DNA from: Candidatus Nealsonbacteria bacterium
Lineage (GTDB): Bacteria; Patescibacteriota; Minisyncoccia; Minisyncoccales; JAUWAW01
DNA length: 64,000 nt
Direction: 5' to 3'
Assembly: GCA_030601865.1 (NCBI GenBank)
Contig: JAUWAW010000001.1
Span: forward strand, 46,433 to 110,432
Shown: in pieces, positions 4,175 through 56,883 of the stretch
How the letters are laid out: every line of letters starts with the position of its first letter
Position numbering within the stretch: the stretch's first letter is position 1
The notes under the pieces: generated by a model
The model's input: only the letters and a program-made list of their open reading frames with translations
What the model was told of the DNA's origin: nothing
Databases searched by the model: none
Program-made: the position numbers and the translations under genes

Positions 4175-5914
4175 ATGTCAAACAAAAAAATAGAAAAAAT
4201 TCGGCATTCGCTGGCGCATATTATGGCTGCAACGGTTAAGGAGCTTTATCCAAGAGTCAAATTCGGTATTGGCCCGGCCATTGAAAATGGTTTTTATTAT
4301 GATTTTGATTTAACCTCTCCTCTGTTCCCTGAAAATCTGCCAAAAATTGAAAAGAAAATACGGGAATTGATTAGAAAAGATTTAAAGTTTGAGAAAGAAA
4401 GTATTTCAAGAACAGAAGCCAAAAAAATATTTAAAAACCAACCATATAAATTCGAATTAATTAAAGAACTAAAAGGGCTACAAGTTTCATGTTTCAAGTT
4501 TCATGATTTCGTTGACTTGTGCAAGGGGCCTCATATTAAATCAACCAAAGAAATAAATCCCAAGGCGTTCAAATTAACTAAAATCGCCGGGGCTTACTGG
4601 CGGGGTGATGAGAAAAACCCCATGCTCACCCGCATTTATGGCGTGGCCTTTGAAACAGAAAAAGAATTAAAAGATTATTTAAAACAAGTTGAAGAAGCAG
4701 AACAAAGAGACCATCGTGTTTTGGGTGAAAAATTGGACTTATTTCATATTGATAAAGCCATCGGCCCAGGCCTTATCCTTTGGCATCCCAAAGGCGCACT
4801 CCTCAAAAAAATCATTGAGGATTATGTGCTTTCAGAATACCTAAAAGCCGGCTATCAACTGGTTAACACTCCCCATATTGCTAAAATTTCCATTTGGGAT
4901 ACCTCGGGCCACACCAAATTCTACAAAGACAGTATGTTCCCAGTCATGCAACTCAAGGAAATGGGCAAGGTAATCCCTTATCAGCTCAAACCAATGAATT
5001 GCCCTTTTCATATCTTGATTTATCAAAAAGAAATTAGAAGTTATCGCCAATTACCTATCCGATACACTGAATTAGGCACGGTTTATAGATACGAGAAATC
5101 AGGCACCTTGCACGGGCTGACGCGAGTGCGTGGTTTTACTCAAGATGATGCTCATATTTTCTGCACTCCTGAACAACTTGGTAAAGAGTTAGTGTCTGTT
5201 TTAAAACTAACTTTAAAAATATTTAAAACTTTTGGTTTTAAAGAATTTGAGATATGTCTTTCCACCCGGCCAAAAAAATATGTTGGCACTTTAAAAAGTT
5301 GGCAGAAAGCCACCAATGCTTTAAAATATGCCTTGGAAAAAGTAAAACTTGCCTATCAAATTGACCCTGGCGAGGGCGTTTTCTATGGACCCAAGATTGA
5401 CATTAAAATCAAAGATTCTTTGGGAAGGGCTTGGCAGTGTACCACCATCCAAGTTGATTTCAATTTACCTGAGGGATTTAATTTAAGCTATATTGATAAA
5501 AAAGGCAAAAAGAAACAGCCCATTATGATTCACCGAGCGCTTCTGGGTTCTTTGGAAAGATTTATTGGCGTTTTGATTGAGCATTATGCAGGCGCTTTCC
5601 CTTTGTGGCTGGCTCCAGAACAGACTTGGATTATTCCCGTAGGTACCCGTCACAAAAAATACGCCCGTGAAACATGCAAACAACTCTACGAGAACAGTTC
5701 TCGTAGTATTGTAAAAGACGCCAATGAAACCGTTTCCAAAAAAATAAGGGAAGGGGAAATCCAAAAAATTCCCTATCTCTTGGTTGTCGGCGACAAAGAA
5801 ATAAAAAGAAAATCAGTTAGGGTCCGCCAGCGAGGCAAGGGCGATATTGGAAAAATGAAACTGAATAAATTTATAGAAAAATGCCAGAATTGTCTTTGCA
5901 AACGCAAAAATTAA
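4175..5914 (+). CDS. thrS: Threonine--tRNA ligase (no N-terminal TGS domain)
   Basis: 579 aa; HSLAHIMA editing-domain motif, class II core (YRYEKSGTLHGLTRVRGFTQDDAHIF), C-terminal anticodon-binding domain. Confidence 0.93.
   Translation: MSNKKIEKIRHSLAHIMAATVKELYPRVKFGIGPAIENGFYYDFDLTSPLFPENLPKIEKKIRELIRKDLKFEKESISRTEAKKIFKNQPYKFELIKELKGLQVSCFKFHDFVDLCKGPHIKSTKEINPKAFKLTKIAGAYWRGDEKNPMLTRIYGVAFETEKELKDYLKQVEEAEQRDHRVLGEKLDLFHIDKAIGPGLILWHPKGALLKKIIEDYVLSEYLKAGYQLVNTPHIAKISIWDTSGHTKFYKDSMFPVMQLKEMGKVIPYQLKPMNCPFHILIYQKEIRSYRQLPIRYTELGTVYRYEKSGTLHGLTRVRGFTQDDAHIFCTPEQLGKELVSVLKLTLKIFKTFGFKEFEICLSTRPKKYVGTLKSWQKATNALKYALEKVKLAYQIDPGEGVFYGPKIDIKIKDSLGRAWQCTTIQVDFNLPEGFNLSYIDKKGKKKQPIMIHRALLGSLERFIGVLIEHYAGAFPLWLAPEQTWIIPVGTRHKKYARETCKQLYENSSRSIVKDANETVSKKIREGEIQKIPYLLVVGDKEIKRKSVRVRQRGKGDIGKMKLNKFIEKCQNCLCKRKN
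5687..5705. repeat. Family-4 palindrome TACGAGAACAGTTCTCGTA inside thrS
   Basis: Perfect 9+1+9 palindrome. The 25-nt string ctacgagaacagttctcgtagtatt is identical to the one in mnmA at 40876-40900. Confidence 0.85.
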
Positions 5915-7460: not shown

Positions 7461-9419
7461 ATGAAATATCATATTGTTACTTACGGCTGTCAAATGAATA
7501 AAAGCGACAGTGAGAGGATTGCTACACTATTAGAGAATAAAGGATATCAGCCCGCGAAAGATATTTCTCGGGCTGATTTGGTAGTAATTAATATGTGTTC
7601 TGTTCGCCAAAAACCGGTAGACAAAGCCAAAAACCAGATTGCTCGTCTCCGCAATAAAAAAATTATTTTAATAGGTTGTATTTTAGATGCTGACAAAAAA
7701 GAATTTGCAAAAATGGGAGTTAAAATCTGGAGAGGTCTGACCTCTGCAAAACTTGCAGAGGTCAGACCTCTAACTGGTTTTGTGCCCATTATGAGAGGGT
7801 GTAATAATTTTTGTTCATACTGTGTTGTGCCTTACACTCGAGGGCCGGAAAAATATCGCAGTCAAAAAGAAATTATTGGCGAAGTTAAACATCTTCTTAA
7901 AAAAGGAATTAAAGAAATTACTTTGCTGGGTCAAAATGTCGATAGTTATAAATATAAACCACCACGGGATCCTTCGGCTTCGCCTCAGGATGATAACTCC
8001 GTTGTCAATTTTGTAAAATTACTTCAGAAAATTACTGTCTTGCCCGGCGATTTTAAGATTAAATTTATTACCAATCATCCCAAAGATTTTTCTGATGAAC
8101 TAATCGATGAGATTGCTCGGAATGACAAAATAATCAAATATGTTCACTTGCCAGTGCAGTCAGGTGATAATAAAATCTTAAAAAAGATGAACCGCAATTA
8201 TACTGGTGAGCAGTATTTGGCTTTGATTAAAAAAATTAAAAAGAAAATACCTAATGTTGACCTAACAACTGATATTATTGTTGGCTTTCCCGGTGAAACC
8301 GAAAAACAATTCCAAAAGACAGTTAACTTGTTTAAAAAGATTAAATTTGCTACCGCCTACATTGCCAAATACAGCCCCCGCCCCGGCACCGTTGCCTATA
8401 AACTAAAAGACAACGTCCCCCTCGCAGAAAAAAAGCGCCGAGAACAAACCCTGAGAAAATTAATACCTCCTACCCGTCATTCTGAGGCGAAGCCGAAGAA
8501 TCTCAACCAACGAGATCCTTCGGCTCGCTATCACTCGCCTCAGGATGACAATAACAAACTTATTGTTATTTTGGGGCCGACGGCTGTAGGGAAAACAGAG
8601 TTTTCAATAAAGCTGGCCAAAAAATTTAACGGCCAGGTGATTTCGGCTGACTCCCGTCAGGTCTATAAAGGAATGAACATCGGAACAGGTAAAATAAGCA
8701 AAAAAGAAAGGCAAGGTATCCCCCACTATCTTTTAGATATTGCCTCCCCCAGAAGAAGGTTTTCGGTTGCCCAATATCAAAAAAAGGCGATTGAAGTCAT
8801 AAACAAAATTTTAAAAAAGAAAAAAATCCCGTTTTTAGTAGGCGGAAGTCCTTTTTATATTTACTCTATTGTTGAGGGTTGGGTTTTTCCCAAAATGAAA
8901 GCCGACTTAAAACTGAGAAAAGAATTGGAAAAAAAATCAATTGAAGAACTTTTCAACATATTAAAAAAACTCTCTCCGCAGAGAGCCAAAACAATTGAAA
9001 AGAAAAACAAAAGACGGCTTATCAGGGCAATTGAGATTGCCAAGGCTTTAGGCAAAGTTTTGCCTCTGAAAAAAAATCCCCAATTTGATTGTTTGTTAAT
9101 AGGGATTAAACTAACAAAAGAAAAATTACAAAAAAAAGTTTCCCAAAGAGTTGATAAAATGATTGAATTAGGTCTTGAAAAAGAAGTAAAAAAATTATCT
9201 GAAAAATACGGCTTCAATTCTGTGTTGGGAGAAAGTATTGGCTACCAAGAATGGGAAAAAAGCGGCAGCCGGGCTGCCGCTGAAATAGCAGAGGAAATAA
9301 AATTTAATACTTATCATCTTGCCAAGCGGCAAATGACCTGGTTCAAAAAAGATAAAAGAATCCTTTGGGTTGAGAATTATAAACAAGCGGAAAATTTGAT
9401 CAAAAATTTCTTGGTATAA
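7461..9419 (+). CDS. miaB-miaA: Fusion protein: MiaB-like methylthiotransferase (UPF0004 + radical SAM, no TRAM domain) fused to tRNA dimethylallyltransferase MiaA
   Basis: N-terminus MKYHIVTYGCQMNKSDSE and CNNFCSYCVVPYTRG (MiaB). From about residue 375, LIVILGPTAVGKTEFSIKLAKKFNGQVISADSRQVYKGMNIGTGK (MiaA P-loop). One uninterrupted 652-aa ORF. Confidence 0.85.
   Translation: MKYHIVTYGCQMNKSDSERIATLLENKGYQPAKDISRADLVVINMCSVRQKPVDKAKNQIARLRNKKIILIGCILDADKKEFAKMGVKIWRGLTSAKLAEVRPLTGFVPIMRGCNNFCSYCVVPYTRGPEKYRSQKEIIGEVKHLLKKGIKEITLLGQNVDSYKYKPPRDPSASPQDDNSVVNFVKLLQKITVLPGDFKIKFITNHPKDFSDELIDEIARNDKIIKYVHLPVQSGDNKILKKMNRNYTGEQYLALIKKIKKKIPNVDLTTDIIVGFPGETEKQFQKTVNLFKKIKFATAYIAKYSPRPGTVAYKLKDNVPLAEKKRREQTLRKLIPPTRHSEAKPKNLNQRDPSARYHSPQDDNNKLIVILGPTAVGKTEFSIKLAKKFNGQVISADSRQVYKGMNIGTGKISKKERQGIPHYLLDIASPRRRFSVAQYQKKAIEVINKILKKKKIPFLVGGSPFYIYSIVEGWVFPKMKADLKLRKELEKKSIEELFNILKKLSPQRAKTIEKKNKRRLIRAIEIAKALGKVLPLKKNPQFDCLLIGIKLTKEKLQKKVSQRVDKMIELGLEKEVKKLSEKYGFNSVLGESIGYQEWEKSGSRAAAEIAEEIKFNTYHLAKRQMTWFKKDKRILWVENYKQAENLIKNFLV
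7732..7770. repeat. Perfect 18-bp-arm palindrome in frame inside the miaB part
   Basis: gaggtctgacctctgcaa-aac-ttgcagaggtcagacctc; encodes RGLTSAKLAEVRPL. The antisense frame reads the near-identical RGLTSASFAEVRPL. Confidence 0.9.
7966..7994. repeat. Family-1 element copy in frame inside the miaB radical-SAM part
   Basis: gggatccttcggcttcgcctcaggatgat; encodes RDPSASPQDD. Confidence 0.85.
8476..8549. repeat. Inverted pair of family-1 elements forming the MiaB-MiaA linker
   Basis: gtcattctgaggcgaagccgaagaatctc ... gagatccttcggctcgctatcactcgcctcaggatgac; encodes RHSEAKPKNLNQRDPSARYHSPQDD. Confidence 0.85.
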
Positions 9420-12365: not shown

Positions 12366-13250
12366 TTAGTCGTGCCAGCCGTATTCGTCGGCTGACTCGT
12401 ATTCGTCGGCTGACTCTTGGTTTTCTTTCTCGACCTTTTTGATGAACAGCTTCTGGTCCTGTTCATAATCTAAGCCATTCTTGAGAGCTATTTCAGCCTT
12501 CTGAAGCTCCCGGCCCAAATACATAGCATGTTCCTTGGTCTGTTGGAAATCACCGATTAAGTCAAGATTGACTATTGTTTTACAAATACGTTCTGCTGAA
12601 TCTCCTGTTATTTTACATTTTAATTTATTGTCTTGGAAATGTTCAACGATTATCTTATTCCTTTCTTTATTAATTAAAACAACAAAGAATCCTTTTGGGT
12701 CAGGTATCCAGTCAGGGCAGGAATGAGCTTCTATTTCTGCTACTTTCTCAATTTTCAAAACCTTTGGAGAAAACTCGCTGGGTTTGGTTTGCAAAAGCTT
12801 ATCAATCACTTCTTCAATTTTCTTACCGTCCCTCTCACCTACCATATTGACAGGTGAAATCTGTTTTCTGAATTGTTCAATCAGTTCTTTATCAATACCT
12901 TTTAGATAGGACATATTGCCTTTGGCTCCGATAATCATTTTATCATTGTCTATACCGCTTTTTACAAGACATTCTATTGCTTGAGAGACAAAATGACCTT
13001 TGGAAATTTTCCCGCAAAGAATCAAATACCTGATATTGGGATTGGAAACTATGTTTTGGATTATTTTTTCTATGCCGATGTTCTCTGTAACACATTTACC
13101 CCAGATTGCTACTTTCTGAGGACTGATTTTTATTTCATCAATACTAGCATTAGTGCAAACAGCCACTGGCGAAATTTTATTGCCCACCTCGTATCTTCCC
13201 TGAACTGGCGGCCAATTTTGCAGCTTGCTTTCCATATTGATAAGTCGCAC
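12366..13250 (-). CDS. MtrA-like (tetrahydromethanopterin S-methyltransferase subunit A-like, corrinoid-type) domain fused to a DUF4346-like C-terminal domain
   Basis: NWPPVQGRYEVGN..SPVAVCT...TENIGIEKIIQNIVSNPNIRYLILCGKISKGHFVSQA...IIGAKG aligns closely with archaeal MtrA as I recall it, including the GH histidine. C-terminal DPKGFFVV...HAMYLGRELQKAE resembles DUF4346. Likely start is the ATG at 13235 (MESKLQNW). Confidence 0.8.
   Translation of the reverse strand: MRLINMESKLQNWPPVQGRYEVGNKISPVAVCTNASIDEIKISPQKVAIWGKCVTENIGIEKIIQNIVSNPNIRYLILCGKISKGHFVSQAIECLVKSGIDNDKMIIGAKGNMSYLKGIDKELIEQFRKQISPVNMVGERDGKKIEEVIDKLLQTKPSEFSPKVLKIEKVAEIEAHSCPDWIPDPKGFFVVLINKERNKIIVEHFQDNKLKCKITGDSAERICKTIVNLDLIGDFQQTKEHAMYLGRELQKAEIALKNGLDYEQDQKLFIKKVEKENQESADEYESADEYGWHD
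12381..12416. repeat. Perfect 18-bp tandem duplication at the 3' end of the MtrA-like gene
   Basis: gtattcgtcggctgactc x2, encoding ESADEY-ESADEY. Confidence 0.9.
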
Positions 13251-15948: not shown

Positions 15949-15954
15949 AATGAA

Positions 15955-16090
15955 ATAACCAATAACCAAGATACAATAACCAAACAAATCTCAATAACCA
16001 ATAATCAATAACCAATTATATAATGTTTGGTTATTGGTGTTTGAAGATTGGTTATTGTTTGGTTATTGTTTCTTGTATCTTGGTGATTGA
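15955..16090. repeat. ~130-bp long-hairpin repeat (AATAACCAA arm / TTGGTTATT arm), copy 1
   Basis: About 90 percent identical by eye to 56757-56883 and in the same orientation; lies between the nusG stop and the rplK start. Confidence 0.85.
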
Positions 16091-26770: not shown

Positions 26771-27403
26771 ATGGAACTCAAAAAACCTGACATCCGTTAT
26801 CTTAATAATATGAAAGAGGTACTTTGTGACCAGGAGTGGGCAAAAGATGCTCCTAATCTTGAGCTTTATTATATGTATCGCTACACAAAACGCGACGGCG
26901 CTTTGAGATATGACATTACTGAAATCCCATTTCAAATGTTAGGCAAAGAATATGTTAAAACAAAAGGCCACAGTCACGCAGGCGCCGAAACCTACGAGGT
27001 TTTACAAGGCAAAGCTATCTTCCTTCTCCAAAAATGTAACGAGAAAAAACCTGACGAGAAGACTTCTCGTCAGGTTGAGGATGTTTATGCGGTTGAGGTA
27101 AAAAGTGGTGATAAGGTATTTATTCCTGCTCATTACGGACATGTAACCATTAATCCCGGACCCGAAGACCTCAAAATGGCAAATTGGGTTTCCGACGCAT
27201 TCAAGTCAGATTATTCCCTTTATCTTGAAAAACAAGGCGCTTGCTATTACTGTATTAAAGGAAATCGGCCCCCATCACTCTGCAAGAGTGAGGGGGTAAA
27301 CTGGATTAAAAACGAAAATTATGGTAAAGTGCCAGAACTAAGATTTGAAAAGCCAAACAAAAATATTCCTGAAGATTTAAAGAAAGCTTTGATGGGAGAA
27401 TAA
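26771..27403 (+). CDS. pgi: Cupin-type (archaeal-type) glucose-6-phosphate isomerase
   Basis: 210 aa; TKGHSHAGAETYEVLQGKAIFLLQ and SGDKVFIPAHYGHVTINPG match Pyrococcus-type PGI as recalled. Confidence 0.8.
   Translation: MELKKPDIRYLNNMKEVLCDQEWAKDAPNLELYYMYRYTKRDGALRYDITEIPFQMLGKEYVKTKGHSHAGAETYEVLQGKAIFLLQKCNEKKPDEKTSRQVEDVYAVEVKSGDKVFIPAHYGHVTINPGPEDLKMANWVSDAFKSDYSLYLEKQGACYYCIKGNRPPSLCKSEGVNWIKNENYGKVPELRFEKPNKNIPEDLKKALMGE
27048..27076. repeat. 14-bp-arm palindrome in frame inside cupin PGI
   Basis: aacctgacgagaag-a-cttctcgtcaggtt; encodes KPDEKTSRQV in a loop about 12 aa longer than in Pyrococcus PGI. Confidence 0.85.
27269..27296. repeat. Family-8 palindrome (CCCCC..CAC..CTGCAA..GTG..GGGGG) in frame inside cupin PGI
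   Basis: cccccatcactc-tgcaa-gagtgaggggg; encodes RPPSLCKSEG; related to the yraN copy at 54282. Confidence 0.8.
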
Positions 27404-40488: not shown

Positions 40489-41640
40489 TTAACATATAAT
40501 TATTCCGCCGCCTAAAAGTTTTTCTCCTTTATAGAAAACCACTGATTGACCCGGGGTGACGGCGCGTTGGGGCTTGGCAAAAATTACTTTACAGCGCCTG
40601 CCCGCTATTTTTTTTATTGCTTCAACTTCAATTACTGGCGAACGATACCTTATTTTCGCTTTTATCCCAACTATTGGAGTTGAACTCCAATAGTTTGAAA
40701 TCCAGTTAACATCTTTGACAATCAATTCTTTTTTTTCCAAATGTTTTTCGTTCTTGGTGACAATTAAAGCATTATTTTTGACATCCTTGTCTAAAACATA
40801 GTATGGACCTCCGGCAAGCCCTATCCCCTTTCGCTGACCAATAGTATAAAACCACAACCCCTGATGCTCGCCAATACTACGAGAACAGTTCTCGTAGTAT
40901 TCTAAGATGGGGCCAGGATTTGTTTTAAGATGTTTTCTCAAAAATTCCTCTGTTGTTTTTTTAATAAAGCAAACTTCTTGAGATTCTCTGGCTTCAAGTA
41001 CCGGCAAGTCAAACTCCTTGGCCATCTGTCTTACTTGTCTTTTGGTGTAATCCCCAATGGGAAACAAAATGTGTTTTAATTGTTTCTGGCCCAACTGCCA
41101 TAAAAAATATGATTGATCTTTTTCTTTATCTTTTGCTCTTACCAATGTGTAATTTTGTATTTTTGTGTCAGAATTCTGCGACCTGCCCGTAATGCTTCGC
41201 ATAGCGATACAGGCGGGTCGCAGGATTTTGACACAGTTTAGATCTTTATTTGTATTTTCACATTTACGCGCATAGTGGCCAGTGGCAATAAAATCTGCGT
41301 CCAAGCCCAAGGCTTTTTTCAATAAAAGTCCAAATTTTATTTCTTTGTTGCAGACCACACAAGGGTTGGGGGTTCTGCCTCTTTTATATTCTTTCAAAAA
41401 ATAATTAATGATTTTTCTCTTAAACTCTTTTCTTAAATCCAAAACCAAAAATGGAATGCCTAATTTTTTAGCAATTTTTCTGACTCTTCTCTCACTTTCT
41501 CTGAAATGAGACGACTCATAAAGTTTCATAAAAACTCCTGTTACATTAAAATTAGCCCTTTTAAGAAGGGCTGCTGCTACCGAACTATCCACGCCACCGG
41601 ACATCGCCACTATTACCTTATTTTTTCTTTTTGCTTTCAT
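40489..41640 (-). CDS. mnmA: tRNA-specific 2-thiouridylase MnmA
   Basis: 383 aa; VAMSGGVDSSVAA, NPCVVCN, ATGHYAR, KDQSYFLW, CFI; carries two palindromic elements in frame. Confidence 0.92.
   Translation of the reverse strand: MKAKRKNKVIVAMSGGVDSSVAAALLKRANFNVTGVFMKLYESSHFRESERRVRKIAKKLGIPFLVLDLRKEFKRKIINYFLKEYKRGRTPNPCVVCNKEIKFGLLLKKALGLDADFIATGHYARKCENTNKDLNCVKILRPACIAMRSITGRSQNSDTKIQNYTLVRAKDKEKDQSYFLWQLGQKQLKHILFPIGDYTKRQVRQMAKEFDLPVLEARESQEVCFIKKTTEEFLRKHLKTNPGPILEYYENCSRSIGEHQGLWFYTIGQRKGIGLAGGPYYVLDKDVKNNALIVTKNEKHLEKKELIVKDVNWISNYWSSTPIVGIKAKIRYRSPVIEVEAIKKIAGRRCKVIFAKPQRAVTPGQSVVFYKGEKLLGGGIIIC
40874..40900. repeat. Family-4 palindrome inside mnmA
   Basis: atactacgagaac-a-gttctcgtagtat; encodes YYENCSRSI (thrS copy encodes YENSSRSI). 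Confidence 0.85.
41164..41235. repeat. Family-2 element (TGTGTCAAAATCCTGCGA/TCGCAGGATTTTGACACA), expanded copy in frame inside mnmA
   Basis: tgtgtcagaattctgcgac-[34-nt insert]-gtcgcaggattttgacaca; 72 bp = 24 codons (CVKILRPACIAMRSITGRSQNSDT). Confidence 0.85.
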
Positions 41641-46997: not shown

Positions 46998-47028
46998 AAA
47001 ACTATCGAGAACTGTTCTCGATAGTTTT
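46998..47028 (-). terminator. Family-4 variant palindrome acting as the lepA terminator
   Basis: aaaactatcgagaa-ctg-ttctcgatagtttt; 14-bp stem; on the minus strand it is followed by ttttggttt. Confidence 0.6.
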
Positions 47029-48833
47029 TAACTTCTAAGGAGTTTCAGGTATATTTCCTCGGGAATAGGGGTGCGGCCGTGTTTTTGGAGAATTTTTTTG
47101 CCTTTGCGTTGTTTGACTAAGAGTTTCTTTTTGCGGGTAAAGTCGCCGCCGTACAGGGGCGCGGTCACATCCTTGCGCAGGGCGCGGATATCCTCACGCG
47201 CGATTATTTTGCCGCCAATTTGGGCTTGAAGCGATTGGGTAAAGTTTTTTGGAGGCAGGACATCCTTTAATCTTTTGAGAAACTGACGCGCCTGCTTGCG
47301 CGCCGCGTCTTTATAAACAATGCGCGAGAAACAGGGCTTCAGTTCGCGCGAAACCAAAAACTCAAGTTTAATAAGGTCGCTTTTTTTATACTCGTCAAAT
47401 TCGTAACTAAAGGAAGCGAACCCCTTGCTAATGCTTTTCAGTTTGTCTAAAAAATCCTCAATAATCTCAGCAAGCGGCGCATAAAACTCTAAAAGCAAGG
47501 TATCTTTATCTAAAACTTGCGAGGAAATAAACTTGCCTCGTTTCTGCTCAACTAATTCATGGATTTTGCTGTTGTGTCTGGTCGGGCTGACAATGTTTAA
47601 TTTAACCCAGGACTCCGCTATATAGTCAATCTCGCCCTGGTCCGGCAGTTCTGCGGCCGAATGGACTAAAATCGGCTCTTTTTGCTTTTTTGTCTTTACC
47701 TTGAAAACAACCGAAGGAGAAGTAAGAACCACTTGGGTGCCATACTCCCGCTTTAACCTTTCCATGGTGATTTCCAGATGAAGCATACCTAAAAAGCCGA
47801 TGCGCAGTCCCCTGCCTAAATAAGGATTGCTCATAGGTTTGGCTGTGAGAGAAGTGTCGTTGAGCCGCAGTTTGTCAAAATTGGCTTTCAGGGTTTCAAA
47901 GTTTTGGCCTTGCCCTTGCCCCTGCCCCGGAAAAACATTGGCAAAAACCAATGGCTTGGGCTCTTTATAGCCAGGCAGGCGAGGACAGTCCTCGCCTGAT
48001 TTGGTTGTTATTGTCTCGCCGATTCTGACGTCTGAAACGTTTTTTATGCCCGTGGCGATGTAGCCGATTTGGCCGGCTATTAGTTTTGGCACAGGACTAC
48101 GTTGCGGTATGAAAATGCCGACTTCTCTTGTTTCGGCGCGGACTTTTTGATTGACAAAATAAATTTGGTCGCCTTTTTTGATTTCGTTGCCAAACAGCCG
48201 CACATAGGCAATTACTCCCTGAAAATTGTCGTAAATTGAATCAAAAACCAGGGCTTTTAATACTCCTCCGCCCTCTGTTTTTGGCTGCGGCGCCTGCTTT
48301 ATCAACGCTTCAAGAACTTTCTCTATATTCTCGCCTGTTTTGGCGGAAATAGTTAAAATTTCCCCTGAATCAATACCTAAAAGATTGGCTAATTCCTGCT
48401 TAACTTTTTCTAATTGCTCCTCGCTCGGACAAACATCTATTTTATTGATAACCGGTATTATTTTCAAACTCTGCGCCTGCGCCAGGCGCAGATTAGCCAG
48501 GGTCTGTGCCTGAATGCCTGAAACCACGTCAACCAATAAAATAACACATTCAACAGCGGCCAAAGACCGTTCTACTTCATAGGAAAAATCCATATGGCCA
48601 GGCGTGTCAATCAAGTTTAATTGGTACTTGCGGCCGGCCAGACCATACTCCATTGCACAGGGCTGCATCTTGATAGTGATGCCGCGCTCTCTTTCCAAAT
48701 CCATCTGGTCCAAAACCTGTTCGCGCATCTGCTCTTTCTTCAAGGTGTTGGTAATTTCCAAAAACCGGTCAGCCAGAGTTGATTTGCCGTGGTTTATATG
48801 CGCGATTATAGAGAAATTTCGTATATTTCCCAT
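47028..48833 (-). CDS. lepA: Elongation factor 4
   Basis: 601 aa; IRNFSIIAHINHGKSTLADR G1 motif, DTPGH, NKID, LepA C-terminal domain; visibly more GC-rich than its neighbours. Confidence 0.95.
   Translation of the reverse strand: MGNIRNFSIIAHINHGKSTLADRFLEITNTLKKEQMREQVLDQMDLERERGITIKMQPCAMEYGLAGRKYQLNLIDTPGHMDFSYEVERSLAAVECVILLVDVVSGIQAQTLANLRLAQAQSLKIIPVINKIDVCPSEEQLEKVKQELANLLGIDSGEILTISAKTGENIEKVLEALIKQAPQPKTEGGGVLKALVFDSIYDNFQGVIAYVRLFGNEIKKGDQIYFVNQKVRAETREVGIFIPQRSPVPKLIAGQIGYIATGIKNVSDVRIGETITTKSGEDCPRLPGYKEPKPLVFANVFPGQGQGQGQNFETLKANFDKLRLNDTSLTAKPMSNPYLGRGLRIGFLGMLHLEITMERLKREYGTQVVLTSPSVVFKVKTKKQKEPILVHSAAELPDQGEIDYIAESWVKLNIVSPTRHNSKIHELVEQKRGKFISSQVLDKDTLLLEFYAPLAEIIEDFLDKLKSISKGFASFSYEFDEYKKSDLIKLEFLVSRELKPCFSRIVYKDAARKQARQFLKRLKDVLPPKNFTQSLQAQIGGKIIAREDIRALRKDVTAPLYGGDFTRKKKLLVKQRKGKKILQKHGRTPIPEEIYLKLLRS
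47906..47930. repeat. Hexanucleotide-type repeat encoding (GQ)4 inside lepA
   Basis: ggccttgcccttgcccctgccccgg; encodes PGQGQGQGQ. Confidence 0.8.
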
Positions 48834-50434
48834 TAATATTCTTCTTCAAAGATTTGGGCGGTGAAAGTGTAGAGGTCAATATCTTCTTCTTTCCAGCAGT
48901 CCCAGGGCAGACCGACTTTTTGAAAGCAAAGTTCTCCCATAAATTTTTCTAAATCCCAATTATTGTCAGTAGCTACTTGGGGCAGAAAAACACCATTTCT
49001 CAAGCCCTTTCTAATTTGCACGCCGTGTTTGCCAATCTCAATTCCCTGCCAATTATCAATTTTCTCTAAGGGACTCAAAACCGAAATTTCATAGTCAAGC
49101 TCACCAAGTTCATCCTCTCCCACAGGATAAAATCTTTTATCCTGGGTGGCAGCCGCAATGGCCATTTGAGAAACAACTTGATACAGAGGTATGTCAGTGG
49201 GTGAAAAACGGCCAATGCAGCCCCGTAGCTGGCTCTGCTTCTTTAAAGTAACAAAAGCACCCAAGTTTTGATTTAATATGGATTCTTCAACTTGAAATTC
49301 TGGAATTTTACCTTCTTTGACAAAAGTTTCAACTGAATTCTTAGCGATTTCCAAAAGTTTTTCTTGCTCTGTTTTCTTTAATAAATGACTCTGTCTTGGT
49401 CCAAAAAAGCCAATGGCTGCATAGCCAACCACTTGCGATTTATCACCTATGGGCACGTCTCCGGAATTGGCATATTTTAATAATTTAATTTCTTCAGCAG
49501 CCAATTCTTTGGCTACTAACATGATTGTTTTGATAGCATCTTCTGCGCAAACAAAAGTTACTGCTCCAGGAATATTCTCTTTTTCCAAGTCCTGAATTGT
49601 TTTTTCTAACTCCCCTACCCTACCGGTTAAAATGGCTTCAATGGTTTTGCTATCTGCCTGTTGAGCATCACCATAGCTAGGATAATGCGACAAATCAGAA
49701 CTGGCAATCAGTAAAATATTCTTACCTCTGATATTTTTAACAATGGCTTGAGCTAAAATTTTGTAATCTTCTTCTGGGCTGTTGCCCAAAATAATGGGTA
49801 CAATCCGTGGTACGTGCACGGACAAAGGAGATCCTTCGGCCTTCGGCCTCAGGATGACTTGCAAAAAAGGTAATTCCACCTCAAGGGAATGCTCTCTTTG
49901 ATGAACACTCTCTCTGAAAAAAATTCTTTCGTTTTCTGCAATAATTTTTTCAGCTAATTGAGAATCTATTTCTACTTCTCCTAAGGGAGTTTTATAAAAA
50001 CCTCGTGGGAAAATAGAAATACCTTCAAATCTCTCATAATGGCTGTTGCCAATAAGAATCACCGTAGCAAATTGGTTCAAATCGTGACGATCGTCATAAC
50101 TTGAACCACCCATCAGTTGCTTAAAGCCGTAGGCGGCCACGGGGCCAGAAAATGGATAGCCAGCATGGGGCAGAACTAAAGCAAAAATCTCGCCTTCGGT
50201 TTCTGGCGGACTTGCCTTTTCCAAAAATTGGTCAATCATTTTCTCTAACTCCTCAGGGTCTCCAGGATAAAATTGTCCAGCCACTGCCGGCTGCCGAATT
50301 ATTTTTTCTTCTTTTTCAAAAACGTCTGAAACCATAGCTTTTTGAGAAATATCTTCCCCTCCCTTAAATATTAAAAGTATACTAATCGCACCAACAACAA
50401 AAATTAATAAAGCTATTATTAGAACTTTCTTCAT
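48833..50434 (-). CDS. AmmeMemoRadiSam system fusion: protein B (Memo-like) + protein A (AMMECR1), with N-terminal membrane anchor
   Basis: 533 aa. TM helix at residues ~3-23. Memo motifs PAVAGQFYPG, LPHAGYPFSGPVAA, SSDLSHYP. AMMECR1 motifs GAFVTLKK..LRGCIGRF, DKRFYPV, ISVLSP, GVFLPQVA. Confidence 0.85.
   Translation of the reverse strand: MKKVLIIALLIFVVGAISILLIFKGGEDISQKAMVSDVFEKEEKIIRQPAVAGQFYPGDPEELEKMIDQFLEKASPPETEGEIFALVLPHAGYPFSGPVAAYGFKQLMGGSSYDDRHDLNQFATVILIGNSHYERFEGISIFPRGFYKTPLGEVEIDSQLAEKIIAENERIFFRESVHQREHSLEVELPFLQVILRPKAEGSPLSVHVPRIVPIILGNSPEEDYKILAQAIVKNIRGKNILLIASSDLSHYPSYGDAQQADSKTIEAILTGRVGELEKTIQDLEKENIPGAVTFVCAEDAIKTIMLVAKELAAEEIKLLKYANSGDVPIGDKSQVVGYAAIGFFGPRQSHLLKKTEQEKLLEIAKNSVETFVKEGKIPEFQVEESILNQNLGAFVTLKKQSQLRGCIGRFSPTDIPLYQVVSQMAIAAATQDKRFYPVGEDELGELDYEISVLSPLEKIDNWQGIEIGKHGVQIRKGLRNGVFLPQVATDNNWDLEKFMGELCFQKVGLPWDCWKEEDIDLYTFTAQIFEEEY
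49828..49858. repeat. Family-1 element copy in frame inside the Memo domain
   Basis: gagatccttcggccttcggcctcaggatgac; encodes (minus strand) VILRPKAEGSP. Confidence 0.85.
50074..50107. repeat. Family-3 element (TTCAAATCGTnnCGATCGTCATAA..TGAA) in frame inside the Memo domain
   Basis: ggttcaaatcgtgacgatcgtcataacttgaacc; encodes SSYDDRHDLNQ. Confidence 0.8.
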
Positions 50435-51609: not shown

Positions 51610-51645
51610 TGTGTCAAAATCCTGCGATCGCAGGATTTTGACACA
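51610..51645. repeat. Family-2 element, perfect 36-bp palindrome, intergenic
   Basis: tgtgtcaaaatcctgcga|tcgcaggattttgacaca; contains GCGATCGC; identical to 56120-56155. Confidence 0.95.
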
Positions 51646-52610: not shown

Positions 52611-52666
52611 TATCTACTTTCATTTTAAGCAATTTTTTGCTAAAATCAAAGGGAGAGGGCCCGTAG

Positions 52667-52732
52667 CCCCTCACCCAGATTGCTCTGCGCTTTGCGCAAA
52701 TTTGTTGAAAACAGGGCAATCTGGGTGAGGGG
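52667..52732. repeat. 17-bp perfect-stem hairpin whose 3' arm overlaps the first 3 nt of tRNA-Ala
   Basis: cccctcacccagattgc-[32 nt containing tgcgc/gcgca]-gcaatctgggtgagggg. Confidence 0.8.
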
Positions 52733-52803
52733 CCTATAGTATAATGGCATTACACCGCATTCGCATTGCGGAAATGTGAGTTCGATTCTCGCTGGGTCCA
52801 CCA
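52730..52803 (+). tRNA. tRNA-Ala (anticodon CGC), CCA encoded
   Basis: Hand fold: acceptor GGGCCTA/TGGGTCC with a G3:U70 pair, anticodon stem CCGCA/TGCGG with loop TTCGCAT, T arm GTGAG-TTCGATT-CTCGC, discriminator A, CCA. Confidence 0.88.
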
Positions 52804-53480: not shown

Positions 53481-53990
53481 TTGTGTGAGAGAACCGCAAA
53501 GATTATTTTGGGTAGTAAAAGAGACATGATTTCTGGTGACTCATTTCAAGATTTTAGGGAATTCACTTATCATCTTGAGAACTTTTGGTTACGTGCTTTT
53601 GCATATAGGGAAAAGATATGTCAACTCATAAACTTAATGCTGGATTTAAGATTTTCCGAAAAAGAACCTCTGTTTTTTACACTATTGAAAGATTCAAGAG
53701 TAAGAGAAAGTGGGCTGAAAGTGGAGTTAGAAAAATTCAACAAAAACAAGATTTTCCGAGAGGTATTAATGAAACGAAAATTGATTACGCACAGGATATA
53801 TTATGATTCCTTAATTTCCGGCTATGATAGGCAGTTTAAGCCTTTTCAGAAAAAGAATATTGGCTCAATACAAAAAACATGGTTGTCAAATATGAGAGAA
53901 GAGGTGAGTTTTGCCAAAAAGTTTACAGAGAAGGTAATGGATTTTAATGACATTATAATGCGGAAGTTGATAGATTATAAAAAAAGATGA
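53481..53990 (+). CDS. Hypothetical helical protein with a possible HEPN-type Rx4H motif
   Basis: 169-aa ORF (TTG start; ATG at 53526 more likely); motif RKLITH within LMKRKLITHRIYY; AT-rich. Confidence 0.45.
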   Translation: MCERTAKIILGSKRDMISGDSFQDFREFTYHLENFWLRAFAYREKICQLINLMLDLRFSEKEPLFFTLLKDSRVRESGLKVELEKFNKNKIFREVLMKRKLITHRIYYDSLISGYDRQFKPFQKKNIGSIQKTWLSNMREEVSFAKKFTEKVMDFNDIIMRKLIDYKKR

Positions 53991-54152: not shown

Positions 54153-54566
54153 ATGCTAAGTCGCAAACAACTGGGGAAATTTGGTGAAGATATTGCTGTT
54201 AAATATCTCAAAAAGCGCGGCTATAAGATTTTGGCAAGGAATTGGCAAAACAAATGGGGAGAGATTGATATTGTGGCCTCGCCCCCCACCACTTTTCTGC
54301 AAAAAGTGGTGGGGGGTAAAAAGAAAAAAATAATTGTTTTCTGCGAAGTTAAAACAATAGAAAAAAAGCCGGGGTTTAGCCCGGAAGATGAAATTGATTG
54401 GAAAAAAGAAAGGCAGCTTTCAAAAATGGCTCAAATTTATTTATCCAGTAATAAAATTCCTCTGGAAAGCCCTTGGCGGATTGATGTTTTAGCCATAGAA
54501 ATTGACCCTTTCTCTGAAAATCCTTCCATCCGCCACTTTGAAAACGTTATCGAGGATAGTTATTAA
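54153..54566 (+). CDS. yraN: YraN-family (UPF0102) endonuclease-like protein
   Basis: 137 aa; GEDIAVKYLKKRGYKILARNW..GEIDIVA ... VFCEVKT; interrupted in frame by a 35-bp palindrome. Confidence 0.85.
   Translation: MLSRKQLGKFGEDIAVKYLKKRGYKILARNWQNKWGEIDIVASPPTTFLQKVVGGKKKKIIVFCEVKTIEKKPGFSPEDEIDWKKERQLSKMAQIYLSSNKIPLESPWRIDVLAIEIDPFSENPSIRHFENVIEDSY
54282..54316. repeat. Family-8 palindrome, 15-bp perfect stem, in frame inside yraN
   Basis: ccccccaccactttt-ctgca-aaaagtggtgggggg; encodes PPTTFLQKVVGG between GEIDIVA and the VFCEVKT strand. Confidence 0.9.
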
Positions 54567-54639
54567 TTTTTTTAAATATATTTTTTATTTCTTCTTTCGC
54601 TTTCAAATCCGTTTCCATTATCGACGTTAAATTGGCAAT

Positions 54640-54668
54640 TGCCGAAGTTCAACTTCGGCAGTTTTTTC
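54640..54668 (+). terminator. Intrinsic terminator after yraN
   Basis: tgccgaagtt-c-aacttcggca followed by gttttttc. Confidence 0.75.
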
Positions 54669-56119: not shown

Positions 56120-56155
56120 TGTGTCAAAATCCTGCGATCGCAGGATTTTGACACA
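56120..56155. repeat. Family-2 element, perfect 36-bp palindrome between dnaB and recR
   Basis: Identical to 51610-51645. Confidence 0.95.
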
Positions 56156-56160
56156 AAATT

Positions 56161-56754
56161 ATGTATCCAAATTCTATTCAAAAACTTATAGATTTGTTCT
56201 CCAAATTTCCCACGGTGGGTCCTCGGACGGCCTCGCGTTTTGTTTTTTATTTAATGTATCTTCCCAAAGAAAAAATTGAAGAACTCGTTCAAGCCATCTC
56301 TAATTTTAAAAACAAGATTAAACTTTGTCAGCTTTGTTTCAATCCCTTGGAAGGCGAAGGAGGCCTTTGCAAAATTTGTTCTGACCCTACCAGAGACAAA
56401 ACCTTGCTCTGTATTGTTGAAAAAGAAACTGATTTGCAAGCCATAGAAAAAATTAAAAAATATAAGGGTCTTTATTTTATTTTGGGAGGCACGGTTTCTA
56501 ATCTGAAACCAGAAGCCCTAAAAAAACTACGGCTCAAAGAATTAGAAGAACGGGTTAAAAGTCCTGAAATCCAGGAAGTTATCCTGGCAACCAATTCTAC
56601 TACCGAGGGTCAAGCCACGGCTTTATATTTACAAAGATTATTAAAACCCTTCAATAAAAAAATCGTCCAACTCGGACGAGGATTACCTATGGGCGGCGAA
56701 TTAGAGTATGCTGATGAAGAAACACTCTCTTCGGCTCTGGAGAGCAGAAGGTAA
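56161..56754 (+). CDS. recR: Recombination protein RecR
   Basis: 197 aa; HhH start, Cys4 zinc finger CQLCFNP...CKICSD, Toprim domain. Confidence 0.93.
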   Translation: MYPNSIQKLIDLFSKFPTVGPRTASRFVFYLMYLPKEKIEELVQAISNFKNKIKLCQLCFNPLEGEGGLCKICSDPTRDKTLLCIVEKETDLQAIEKIKKYKGLYFILGGTVSNLKPEALKKLRLKELEERVKSPEIQEVILATNSTTEGQATALYLQRLLKPFNKKIVQLGRGLPMGGELEYADEETLSSALESRR

Positions 56755-56756
56755 AA

Positions 56757-56883
56757 CACCAATAACCAAGAAACAATAACCAAACAAATTTCAATAACCA
56801 ATAACCAATTTCCAAACTGTTTGGTTATTGATGTTTGAAGATTGGTTATTGTTTGGTGATTGTATCTTGTATCTTGGTTATTT
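56757..56883. repeat. ~130-bp long-hairpin repeat, copy 2
   Basis: Between convergent recR and rplU; overlaps the last codons of rplU; same orientation as copy 1. Confidence 0.85.

Follow-up and report, generated by a model that had tools for sequence, protein, structure and literature searches.

Rickettsia palindromic elements (RPEs) occur as in-frame insertions in many genes (PMC10969869), and the GC clusters of yeast mitochondria (e.g., GC42) are mobile elements with conserved stems and variable loops whose transposition mechanism is unresolved (PMC4478555). Here we examine two G+C-rich hairpins, one in yraN and one in the gene for a cupin-type glucose-6-phosphate isomerase (PGI), that lie within 64,000 nucleotides of contig JAUWAW010000001.1 of a Candidatus Nealsonbacteria bacterium (this whole stretch is referred to as the window, and positions are those of the window). 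An initial annotation, made from the sequence alone, had proposed that both hairpins are in-frame insertions of common origin. The window, at 38.6% G+C, belongs to an A+T-rich genome of the Patescibacteria, or candidate phyla radiation (CPR), and the top matches of the YraN and PGI proteins are from metagenome-assembled genomes (MAGs) of Nealsonbacteria, Pacebacteria, Staskawiczbacteria and other members of the "Patescibacteria group".

Like RPEs, the two hairpins are palindromic, lie in frame in housekeeping genes that are unrelated to each other, and encode fold-compatible surface peptides in a bacterial genome that is both reduced and A+T-rich (PMC10969869). The feature that serves as a test for RPEs, an in-frame palindrome in coding genes that is missing from orthologues, was found here as well. 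In contrast, RPEs are approximately 100-150 bp long, form families that number in the tens and specify a peptide that is conserved, whereas the present elements measure 36-39 nt, were seen twice and are read in different frames; they also occur in another phylum, where a sequence relation is not expected. GC clusters are G+C-rich hairpins of 30-60 nt in a very A+T-rich genome, and their presence differs between close relatives (PMC4478555). The present hairpins are likewise G+C-rich in a window of 38.6% G+C, and in another type of element found in Patescibacteria, termed here the C5ACACC type, the arms are steadier than the loops. GC clusters are mostly intergenic, organellar and accompanied by an AG target-site duplication, while the present copies are genic, in frame and bacterial, and show no visible duplication. 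The repetitive extragenic palindromes (REPs) and bacterial interspersed mosaic elements associated with RAYT, a Y1 transposase of the HUH type, are similar in being hairpins of 20-40 nt, imperfect to perfect, that may be nested and whose short flanks are conserved but not palindromic (PMC3733652). An extragenic location is part of the definition of REPs, whereas both hairpins studied here are inside open reading frames (ORFs). The GTAG/CGTC end tag of REPs is also lacking, the flanks being TCG(G) and TAAA here and TTCA and CAAG in the C5ACACC type, and no RAYT gene was found among the 22 ORFs of the window that were scanned. Miniature inverted-repeat transposable elements have terminal inverted repeats and a target-site duplication, while here the whole element is one hairpin with no flanking direct repeat. 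RPEs, GC clusters and REPs are the nearest known systems, and RPEs resemble the present hairpins most. Since their defining features (size, target duplication, tag and extragenic position) fail in the present case, these elements act alike but belong to none of the three.

Two related in-frame insertions in yraN and the PGI gene

The features of the two host genes are as follows.

54153..54566, + strand: yraN, host gene of the first hairpin, an intact 137-aa ORF of family UPF0102 and a predicted PD-(D/E)xK nuclease (Pfam PF02021, E = 4.8e-23).
54282-54316, + strand: yraN hairpin with a perfect 15-bp stem, CCCCCCACCACTTTT-CTGCA-AAAAGTGGTGGGGGG, translated as PPTTFLQKVVGG.
54279..54317, + strand: in-frame insertion of 39 nt in yraN (13 codons, S43-G55), TCG-C6-ACCACTTTT-CTGCA-AAAAGTGGT-G6-T, which encloses the 15-bp-stem hairpin.
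26771..27403, + strand: gene for the cupin-type PGI, host gene of the second hairpin, an intact 210-aa ORF (Pfam PF06560, E = 5.8e-30).
27269-27296, + strand: PGI hairpin, imperfect with one bulged A, CCCCC(A)TCACTC-TGCAA-GAGTGAGGGGG, flanked by TCGG on the left and TAAA on the right, read as (R)PPSLCKSEG.
27260..27295, + strand: in-frame insertion of 36 nt in the PGI gene (G164-G175), from the DNA alignment with a syntenic relative (L048) and a protein indel scan.

Our data indicate that both segments are foreign to typical orthologues. Homologue searches returned 645 YraN proteins, and the best 120 were surveyed for inserts. The basal site IVA-KKKxx-IVF, with no insert, is present in 74 of these 120 in the protein alignment, and in the closest orthologues (P0004-P0006, 69-73% identity) IVA-KKK..-IVF is contiguous. 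The invariant catalytic residues E37, D39, E65 and K67 are all kept in the window copy. AlphaFold models of YraN and PGI, built with alignments, have overall confidence scores (pLDDT) of 86.6 and 85.2, and in the YraN model the insert is a loop (residues 44-60, local pLDDT 65-80) between strands 36-43 and 61-70. As RNA, the yraN hairpin folds at -30.5 kcal/mol (z = -5.1), and no shuffle folds as well. A terminator reading was rejected for this hairpin and for that of the PGI gene, as both are in the middle of an ORF and neither strand has a T-tail; yraN has its real terminator at 54637-54663. Directly 5' of yraN is an ORF of the HEPN (Cthe_2314-like) family (53481..53990).

For the cupin PGI, of which 2109 homologues were found, the PDB matches are archaeal cupin PGIs, and their alignment with the window protein reaches residue 154. 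The PGI of L048, which is 79% identical and encoded in the same gene order (PheST, SecG, SBP, PGI, RNase J ... RecA, ClpB), reads K-AG-W where the window protein reads K-GNRPPSLCKSEGVN-W, so that the window gene is longer by 36 nt, or 12 residues. In the AlphaFold model residues 164-175 form a loop (local pLDDT 62-73) between strands 159-163 and 176-180. The PGI hairpin folds at -22 kcal/mol as RNA (z = -3.9), and again no shuffle folds as well. A template for the yraN insert of at least 11 nt was not found elsewhere in the window except for one chance-level 11-mer, and for the two hairpins together the window offers just chance-level 11-12-mers as local templates. Judging by these alignments, both arms of each hairpin are foreign, i.e., absent from orthologues, and have no local template.

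We next considered whether the two hairpins are related. The initial annotation held that C5 and G5 runs are otherwise rare in this sequence, which does not stand, since the window has 25 runs of five or more C and 13 runs of five or more G compared to a rough composition-based estimate of approximately 14 each. The pairing of a C-run with a G-run as a hairpin occurs in the window only at the yraN and PGI sites, and shuffled sequence gives an expectation of 0.01 occurrences for the pattern C5-N-CTGCA-N-G5. Outside the clamps the two elements share the left flank TCG(G) and the right flank TAAA, and they have the same first six arm bases (A-y-CACT) and the same central 6-mer (CTGCAA). G4 followed by TAAA and C4 followed by AYCAC are each present in the window only at these two sites. 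The chance of this conjunction of shared features is approximately 1e-7 in a simulation with chunks of real sequence, the features having been chosen post hoc. Because the window contains only two C-run/G-run hairpins, a single pairwise comparison is a fair test. Even after a heavy post-hoc discount, these shared sequences support a common origin or a common constraint of the two hairpins. Relative to the element, yraN and the PGI gene are read in different frames, as expected for an event at the DNA level.

Overall, the initial annotation described a real feature and was in essence correct in interpreting it. For both hairpins it gave accurate sequences, coordinates and translations; the inserts are in frame between conserved strands, with catalytic residues intact and loops between strands in the AlphaFold models; alignment with orthologues bears out that they are foreign, as P0004-P0006 and L048 are without them; and its claim of a common origin holds in that, for a pair defined beforehand, the shared flanks, arm start and centre are well beyond chance. 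We therefore regard the insertion status, the frame and the relatedness of the two copies as established, with the loop location taken from models.

We consider there to be an even chance that the yraN and PGI hairpins are selfish or neutral palindromic mini-insertions that persist only where they are in frame in permissive turns. The two sites would then hold related copies of a palindromic DNA insertion of approximately 36-39 nt, with G+C-rich clamps in an A+T-rich host. Palindromes would arise or land all over the gene-dense genomes of Patescibacteria, and purifying selection would spare those copies that have a length that is a multiple of three, are free of stop codons and are situated in a structurally permissive turn. 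The ribosome would read through the insert, adding 10-13 loop-friendly residues, and the host enzymes would stay functional while the insert would have no dedicated protein role. The two halves of the insert peptide mirror each other (Pro/Gly, Thr/Val and Phe/Lys are opposed), which follows from the reverse complementarity of the two arms. We infer that the spread of the elements takes place at the DNA level and depends on the hairpin, in the manner of REPs, RPEs or GC clusters, with mobilisation probably in trans; that replication template switching may make some elements and extend or help to maintain others; and that the elements are likely neutral or selfish.

Several other readings of the hairpins were rejected. 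The hairpins are not promoters. C5ACCA does not represent a tRNA 3' end, since ARAGORN finds no tRNA at the hairpins and the arm order is wrong for an acceptor helix. An argument from codon usage is not decisive, as CCC makes up 31% of proline codons.

Palindromes elsewhere in the window and at the same loops in other Patescibacteria

The window contains 34 perfect hairpins (stem of at least 9, loop of at most 14) compared to 3-13 in ten dinucleotide shuffles, and many of them are within ORFs and in frame. The MnmA gene holds three hairpins, and the features that matter here, together with a second hairpin of the PGI gene, are listed below.

41164..41235, - strand: in-frame insertion in the MnmA gene, a copy of the 36-nt palindrome TGTGTCAAAATCCTGCGA/TCGCAGGATTTTGACACA (the slash marks the centre) that is interrupted exactly at this centre by a second palindrome, which is G+C-rich.
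51610..51645, no strand: intergenic copy of the 36-nt perfect zero-loop palindrome, identical in sequence to the copy at 56120.
56120..56155, no strand: the same 36-nt palindrome a second time between genes, directly 3' of the dnaB stop codon.
40873..40901, - strand: MnmA hairpin AATACTACGAGAAC-a-GTTCTCGTAGTATT, in frame, adding 3 aa compared to PDB homologues.
27048..27076, + strand: PGI hairpin 1, a second in-frame hairpin of the PGI gene and unrelated to the one described above, AACCTGACGAGAAG-a-CTTCTCGTCAGGTT, which encodes KPDEKTSRQV.

The insertion at 41164-41235 accounts for 24 of approximately 30 residues that are missing from PDB MnmA, and a relative (L010) is likewise without the extra residues. 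The MnmA copy is identical to the intergenic copies of the 36-nt palindrome at 34 of 36 positions. Since the MnmA insert is a copy of an intergenic palindrome, it shows directly that a dispersed palindromic repeat of this genome can become an in-frame part of a housekeeping gene. CGA/TCG-centred palindromes like the 36-nt one are also found directly 3' of yraN in three relatives (L038 2719-2756, L041 466-501 and L042 1032-1085), the last of which has GTGTCAAAAT in common with the window palindrome. From its sequence, the CGA/TCG-centred palindrome may be a widespread intergenic element of the CPR.

A second group, CGAGAAC-n-GTTCTCG, comprises the MnmA hairpin at 40873-40901, a hairpin in ThrRS (5686-5706) and a related intergenic copy (46998-47028). 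An identical stretch of 21 nt, CTACGAGAACAGTTCTCGTAG, is found in ThrRS (YENSSRS) and MnmA (YENCSRS), and PGI hairpin 1 has a similar core. The distal left arm of PGI hairpin 1 is supplied by an 18-nt insertion (27038-27055), a place where the PGI of L048 is six residues shorter. Within this insertion AACCTGAC corresponds, in reverse complement, to GTCAGGTT further downstream, and AAAAAACCTGAC of the hairpin recurs at the start of the PGI gene; in the AlphaFold model the hairpin corresponds to a loop at residues 90-101. This arrangement plausibly resembles an extension by template switching. The longest perfect hairpin inside an ORF (7731-7771, a 19-bp stem, AGAGGTCTGACCTCTGCAA-aac-TTGCAGAGGTCAGACCTCT) is in a UPF0004/radical-SAM linker; each of its arms is itself a small palindrome, and CTCTGCAA is common to it and the PGI hairpin. 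The reading that all in-ORF hairpins are insertions was rejected, as the two hairpins of LepA and several A/T-rich hairpins on conserved motifs involve no length change. The complementarity of the A/T-rich hairpins on conserved motifs results from Phe/Lys codon bias.

We then asked whether the YraN turn is occupied in other Patescibacteria. Of the 120 best homologues, 46 have an insert at the turn, which adds between 4 and 13 residues and in most cases 11 or more. In a neighbour-joining tree these 46 are spread over no fewer than seven separate clades, and every clade has a sequence type of its own (at least five types). Insert-less yraN genes are interspersed in the tree, and two are nested within an insert-bearing clade. 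Scans with a single peptide pattern from the YraN alignment returned 11 genome and 36 metagenome loci. Orthologues with an equivalent peptide but no palindromic DNA would have spoken against the initial annotation. Many orthologues do have such a peptide, but most of the DNAs obtained keep dyad symmetry, so that this objection does not apply. The symmetry is clear in four cases (L013, L052, L053 and L118/L120): the insert of L013 is CCCCCACACCAAAA-a-TTTTGGCGTGGGGG, that of L052 is CCCCCACACCAAA-cgaagt-TATGGTGTGGGGG, and that of L053, from a different family, is ACCCCGTAGGAATATC-ttt-GATATCCTACGGGGT. The insert of L051 is a degenerate dyad ending in GGGGGTAAAAAG as in the window, and that of L050 has decayed to 6-7 bp of pairing. 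Another family of G+C-rich hairpins, CCCCGAAGGA...TCCTACGGGG, flanked, e.g., by CAGGCAGG or CAGGCGGG, is found at L015 887-915, L025 1724-1759 and L036 111-396; L036 has three copies less than 300 nt 5' of yraN, and the YraN insert of L053 is of the same type. A second insertion hot spot of YraN lies 3' of the EVKT strand, with G+C-rich segments (LRQAQGKPF, RLAPLAQGRPSY) and a 30-residue insert in P0038; the L052 segment there contains an imperfect 14-bp hairpin.

The clustering of YraN inserts at 11 to 13 residues, and their position lengthening the hairpin between the strand of the active-site Asp and the Glu-x-Lys strand, could be taken to mean that the inserts are adaptive protein extensions (e.g., a longer nuclease beta-arm or a remodelled PGI surface) for which palindromy was only the source of raw material. 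We find this very unlikely, since model confidence is low with no regular arm structure, the peptides of the different types are unrelated, close relatives are without the insert, and the perfect complementarity of the DNA, which includes synonymous positions, is beyond what selection on the protein can explain.

The other loops are similarly occupied. At PGI site 2, L121 has imperfect G+C-rich hairpins, and L122 has a perfect GCCCCGCC-ag-GGCGGGGC nested within an imperfect hairpin of the L121 type; at PGI site 1, L122 has TCCCGCC-aga-GGCGGGA. The MnmA loop of L012 holds another hairpin, TGCCCGCCTTCGCC-agcag-GGCGAAGGCGGGCA. Our data thus establish that there is a dispersed palindrome with intergenic and in-ORF copies, and that the same loops hold other palindromes in other lineages. 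Since the source is a MAG and chimeric reads can yield palindromes, we considered an assembly or amplification artefact. This is extremely unlikely given that the hairpins are in frame within full-length conserved ORFs, that same-site palindromes are present in many independent assemblies from different projects, and that the Mur-ligase hairpin of the window was recovered in an independent Logan assembly.

The window has further inverted repeats and unusual genes. Two related intergenic long imperfect inverted repeats (15954-16089 and 56753-56883) consist of CAATAACCAA-like units with a period of approximately 7-11, and one of them is just 3' of recR; they could be operator- or origin-like arrays. 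A hairpin with a 22-bp stem (GCCCCTCACCCAGATTGCTCTG...CAGGGCAATCTGGGTGAGGGGC, 52666-52733) is immediately 5' of tRNA-Ala(CGC) (52730-52803), and the first four tRNA bases are also part of the right arm of this hairpin. Unusual fusions are MiaB-like (UPF0004 and radical SAM) with MiaA (IPP transferase) at 7461..9419, Memo-like with AMMECR1 at 48833..50434, and MtrA-like with a pterin-binding DUF4346 at 12366..13250.

Possible spread as DNA, template switching or function of the hairpin

Template-switch mutations create perfect stems in one step that are later maintained (PMC8794818). We asked whether a purely local origin by replication template switching (fold-back, quasi-palindrome correction), with palindromes as mutational by-products, accounts for the data. 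In such an event the polymerase would briefly copy the nascent or opposite strand to give a perfect inverted repeat at once, and later events would keep the arms matched; recurrence would be expected where the native sequence is weakly self-complementary, e.g., the Lys AAAAAG... and Ile/Val/Phe ...TTTTT codons at the YraN turn. Indeed, insert-less yraN genes already have 5-9 bp of A-run/T-run pairing at the turn. A YraN clade with the insert SENIGKNQFLA has a 33-nt insertion and an 18-bp stem (AAAAACCAGTTCTTGGCT / AGCCAAGAACTGGTTTTT), the right arm of which is native (the SQELVF strand, also in the insert-less P0108) while the left arm lies inside the insertion. Its sequence clearly reads as a local inverted duplication with the signature of template switching and no mobile element. 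The combination of a native arm and a new reverse-complement copy is partly seen in PGI hairpin 1 as well, where the insertion brings the reverse complement of downstream sequence. LepA has G+C-rich palindromes of 10-11 bp with length unchanged, and the mechanism itself is documented (PMC8794818). A further point in its favour is a paired compensatory change in the palindrome of another gene: an ORF of approximately 510 aa 5' of yraN (PK[VI]GQ[IV]LSYLL) has a conserved palindrome with an 11-13-bp stem (L002 5513-5539, L007 2922-2946, L021 2528-2554), and in L021 both arms are altered in such a way that they still pair (AAGGTAGG/CCTACCTT vs AAGATAGG/CCTATCTT). The yraN and PGI hairpins differ in having neither a native arm nor a local template: both arms are missing in orthologues, there is no template of at least 11 nt nearby, and the hairpins are G+C-rich amid an A+T-rich context. 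Local copying also predicts neither the likeness of the yraN and PGI elements across unrelated genes 27 kb apart nor the near-identity of the C5ACACC type in distant lineages and at an intergenic site. A purely local origin by template switching is in our view unlikely.

The C5ACACC type (TTCA-C5ACACCAAA...GGyGTG5-CAAG) is found in the YraN inserts of L013 and L052. Outside the element the two yraN genes have 59% protein, 63% DNA and 45% third-codon-position identity, which is close to saturation, while the arms and flanks (TTCACCCCCACACCAAA and GGyGTGGGGGCAAG) are identical at 17 of 17 and 13 of 14 positions and the loops differ. A third copy, with a third loop, is intergenic in L007, within the loop of a terminator-like hairpin approximately 35 nt 3' of an insert-less yraN. 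Near-identical arms in such distant genes are a clue to either mobility or constraint. Constraint would be expected if the hairpin were a functional cis-acting DNA or mRNA structure, i.e., an RNase or processing signal, an mRNA stabiliser, a translational pause or a protein site (e.g., for YraN). The stems are very stable, stems are kept while loops vary (P0099/P0101 and L013/L052), a hairpin of similar size but differing sequence is found at the YraN turn in at least seven clades, and the L007 hairpin lies just downstream of an insert-less gene. We nevertheless consider a cis-acting function improbable, since 74 of the 120 best YraN matches are insert-less, insert-less genes are nested in insert-bearing clades, several copies decay without compensation, comparable palindromes occur in PGI, MnmA and MiaB, genes with no common theme, and the hairpins have no Rfam match and no terminator or promoter context (with Rfam covariance models over the window, only two tRNAs reach the gathering score). 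As all loci were sampled around yraN, sampling in part accounts for the hairpins seeming to be associated with this gene.

For the selfish or neutral mini-insertions that we favour, decay without compensation in L050 and L051 and the removal of a hairpin by deletion fit with passenger DNA. The deletion, approximately 65 nt in L044 (666-1002), a close relative of L013 (461-862), removes the hairpin together with the EVK strand and causes a frameshift in yraN; it may be either palindrome-associated or an assembly error. A palindrome is nested in the centre or loop of another in three cases (MnmA, the L007 terminator and the PGI gene of L122), which suggests that hairpin tips may be preferred points of entry or growth.

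Several observations weigh against these mini-insertions. The type shared by yraN and PGI has two copies in 64 kb; neither copy has a target-site duplication, a flanking direct repeat or ends typical of a known element, and the 22 of 59 called window ORFs that were scanned include no transposase. When a 25-nt half-element was compared with the whole window, its match to the other hairpin was no better than the best matches in shuffled sequence, so similarity alone would have missed the yraN/PGI pair. The C5-CAC clamp alone is not diagnostic, because unrelated phage terminators have it: CCCCCACACC...GGTGTGGGGG has 63 matches in viral contigs, all of them ordinary phage terminators flanked by A-tracts and T-tracts; the G+C content of the surrounding DNA is 35-71% and exceeds 50% in most cases. 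The SENIGKNQFLA hairpin, as a local duplication, counts on the same side, and so does the L007 copy, since a position approximately 35 nt from yraN would be odd if location were random. Finally, P0099 and P0101, with hairpins of the SENIGKNQFLA type, are identical at 36 of 36 stem bases while the genes are approximately 80% identical, which could alternatively be a sign of function.

A broader proposal is that these hairpins represent an undescribed class of elements of approximately 30-40 nt in Patescibacteria, which would either spread in a structure-directed manner into exposed turns and into hairpin centres or loops, or be functional coding stem-loops, possibly tied to the structure-specific nuclease YraN, whose own gene carries or adjoins a hairpin in many lineages. 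We regard this as doubtful. Literature searches returned no description of such elements in Patescibacteria, which is weak evidence of novelty. In viral contigs neither the motif with CPR flanks nor the window-type motif had matches. Six-frame peptides of the elements gave 4442 word-sharing candidates in a collection of 5.8 billion proteins, none with E of 10 or below, the peptides being too short for significance.

Possible consequences for streamlined genomes

The most notable observations are the nested insertions at palindrome centres and the stems that are steadier than synonymous sites. If the yraN and PGI hairpins are indeed palindromic mini-insertions, streamlined CPR genomes would still be being peppered with palindromic DNA, and a part of the "CPR-specific insertions" in conserved proteins would be accidents at the DNA level and not adaptations. 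This would bear on annotation and on the use of indels as phylogenetic or functional signals. The inserts would also provide a natural map of loop-tolerant places in essential enzymes, and a comparative system for the birth, by transposition or template switching, and the upkeep of perfect hairpins in reduced-repair genomes.

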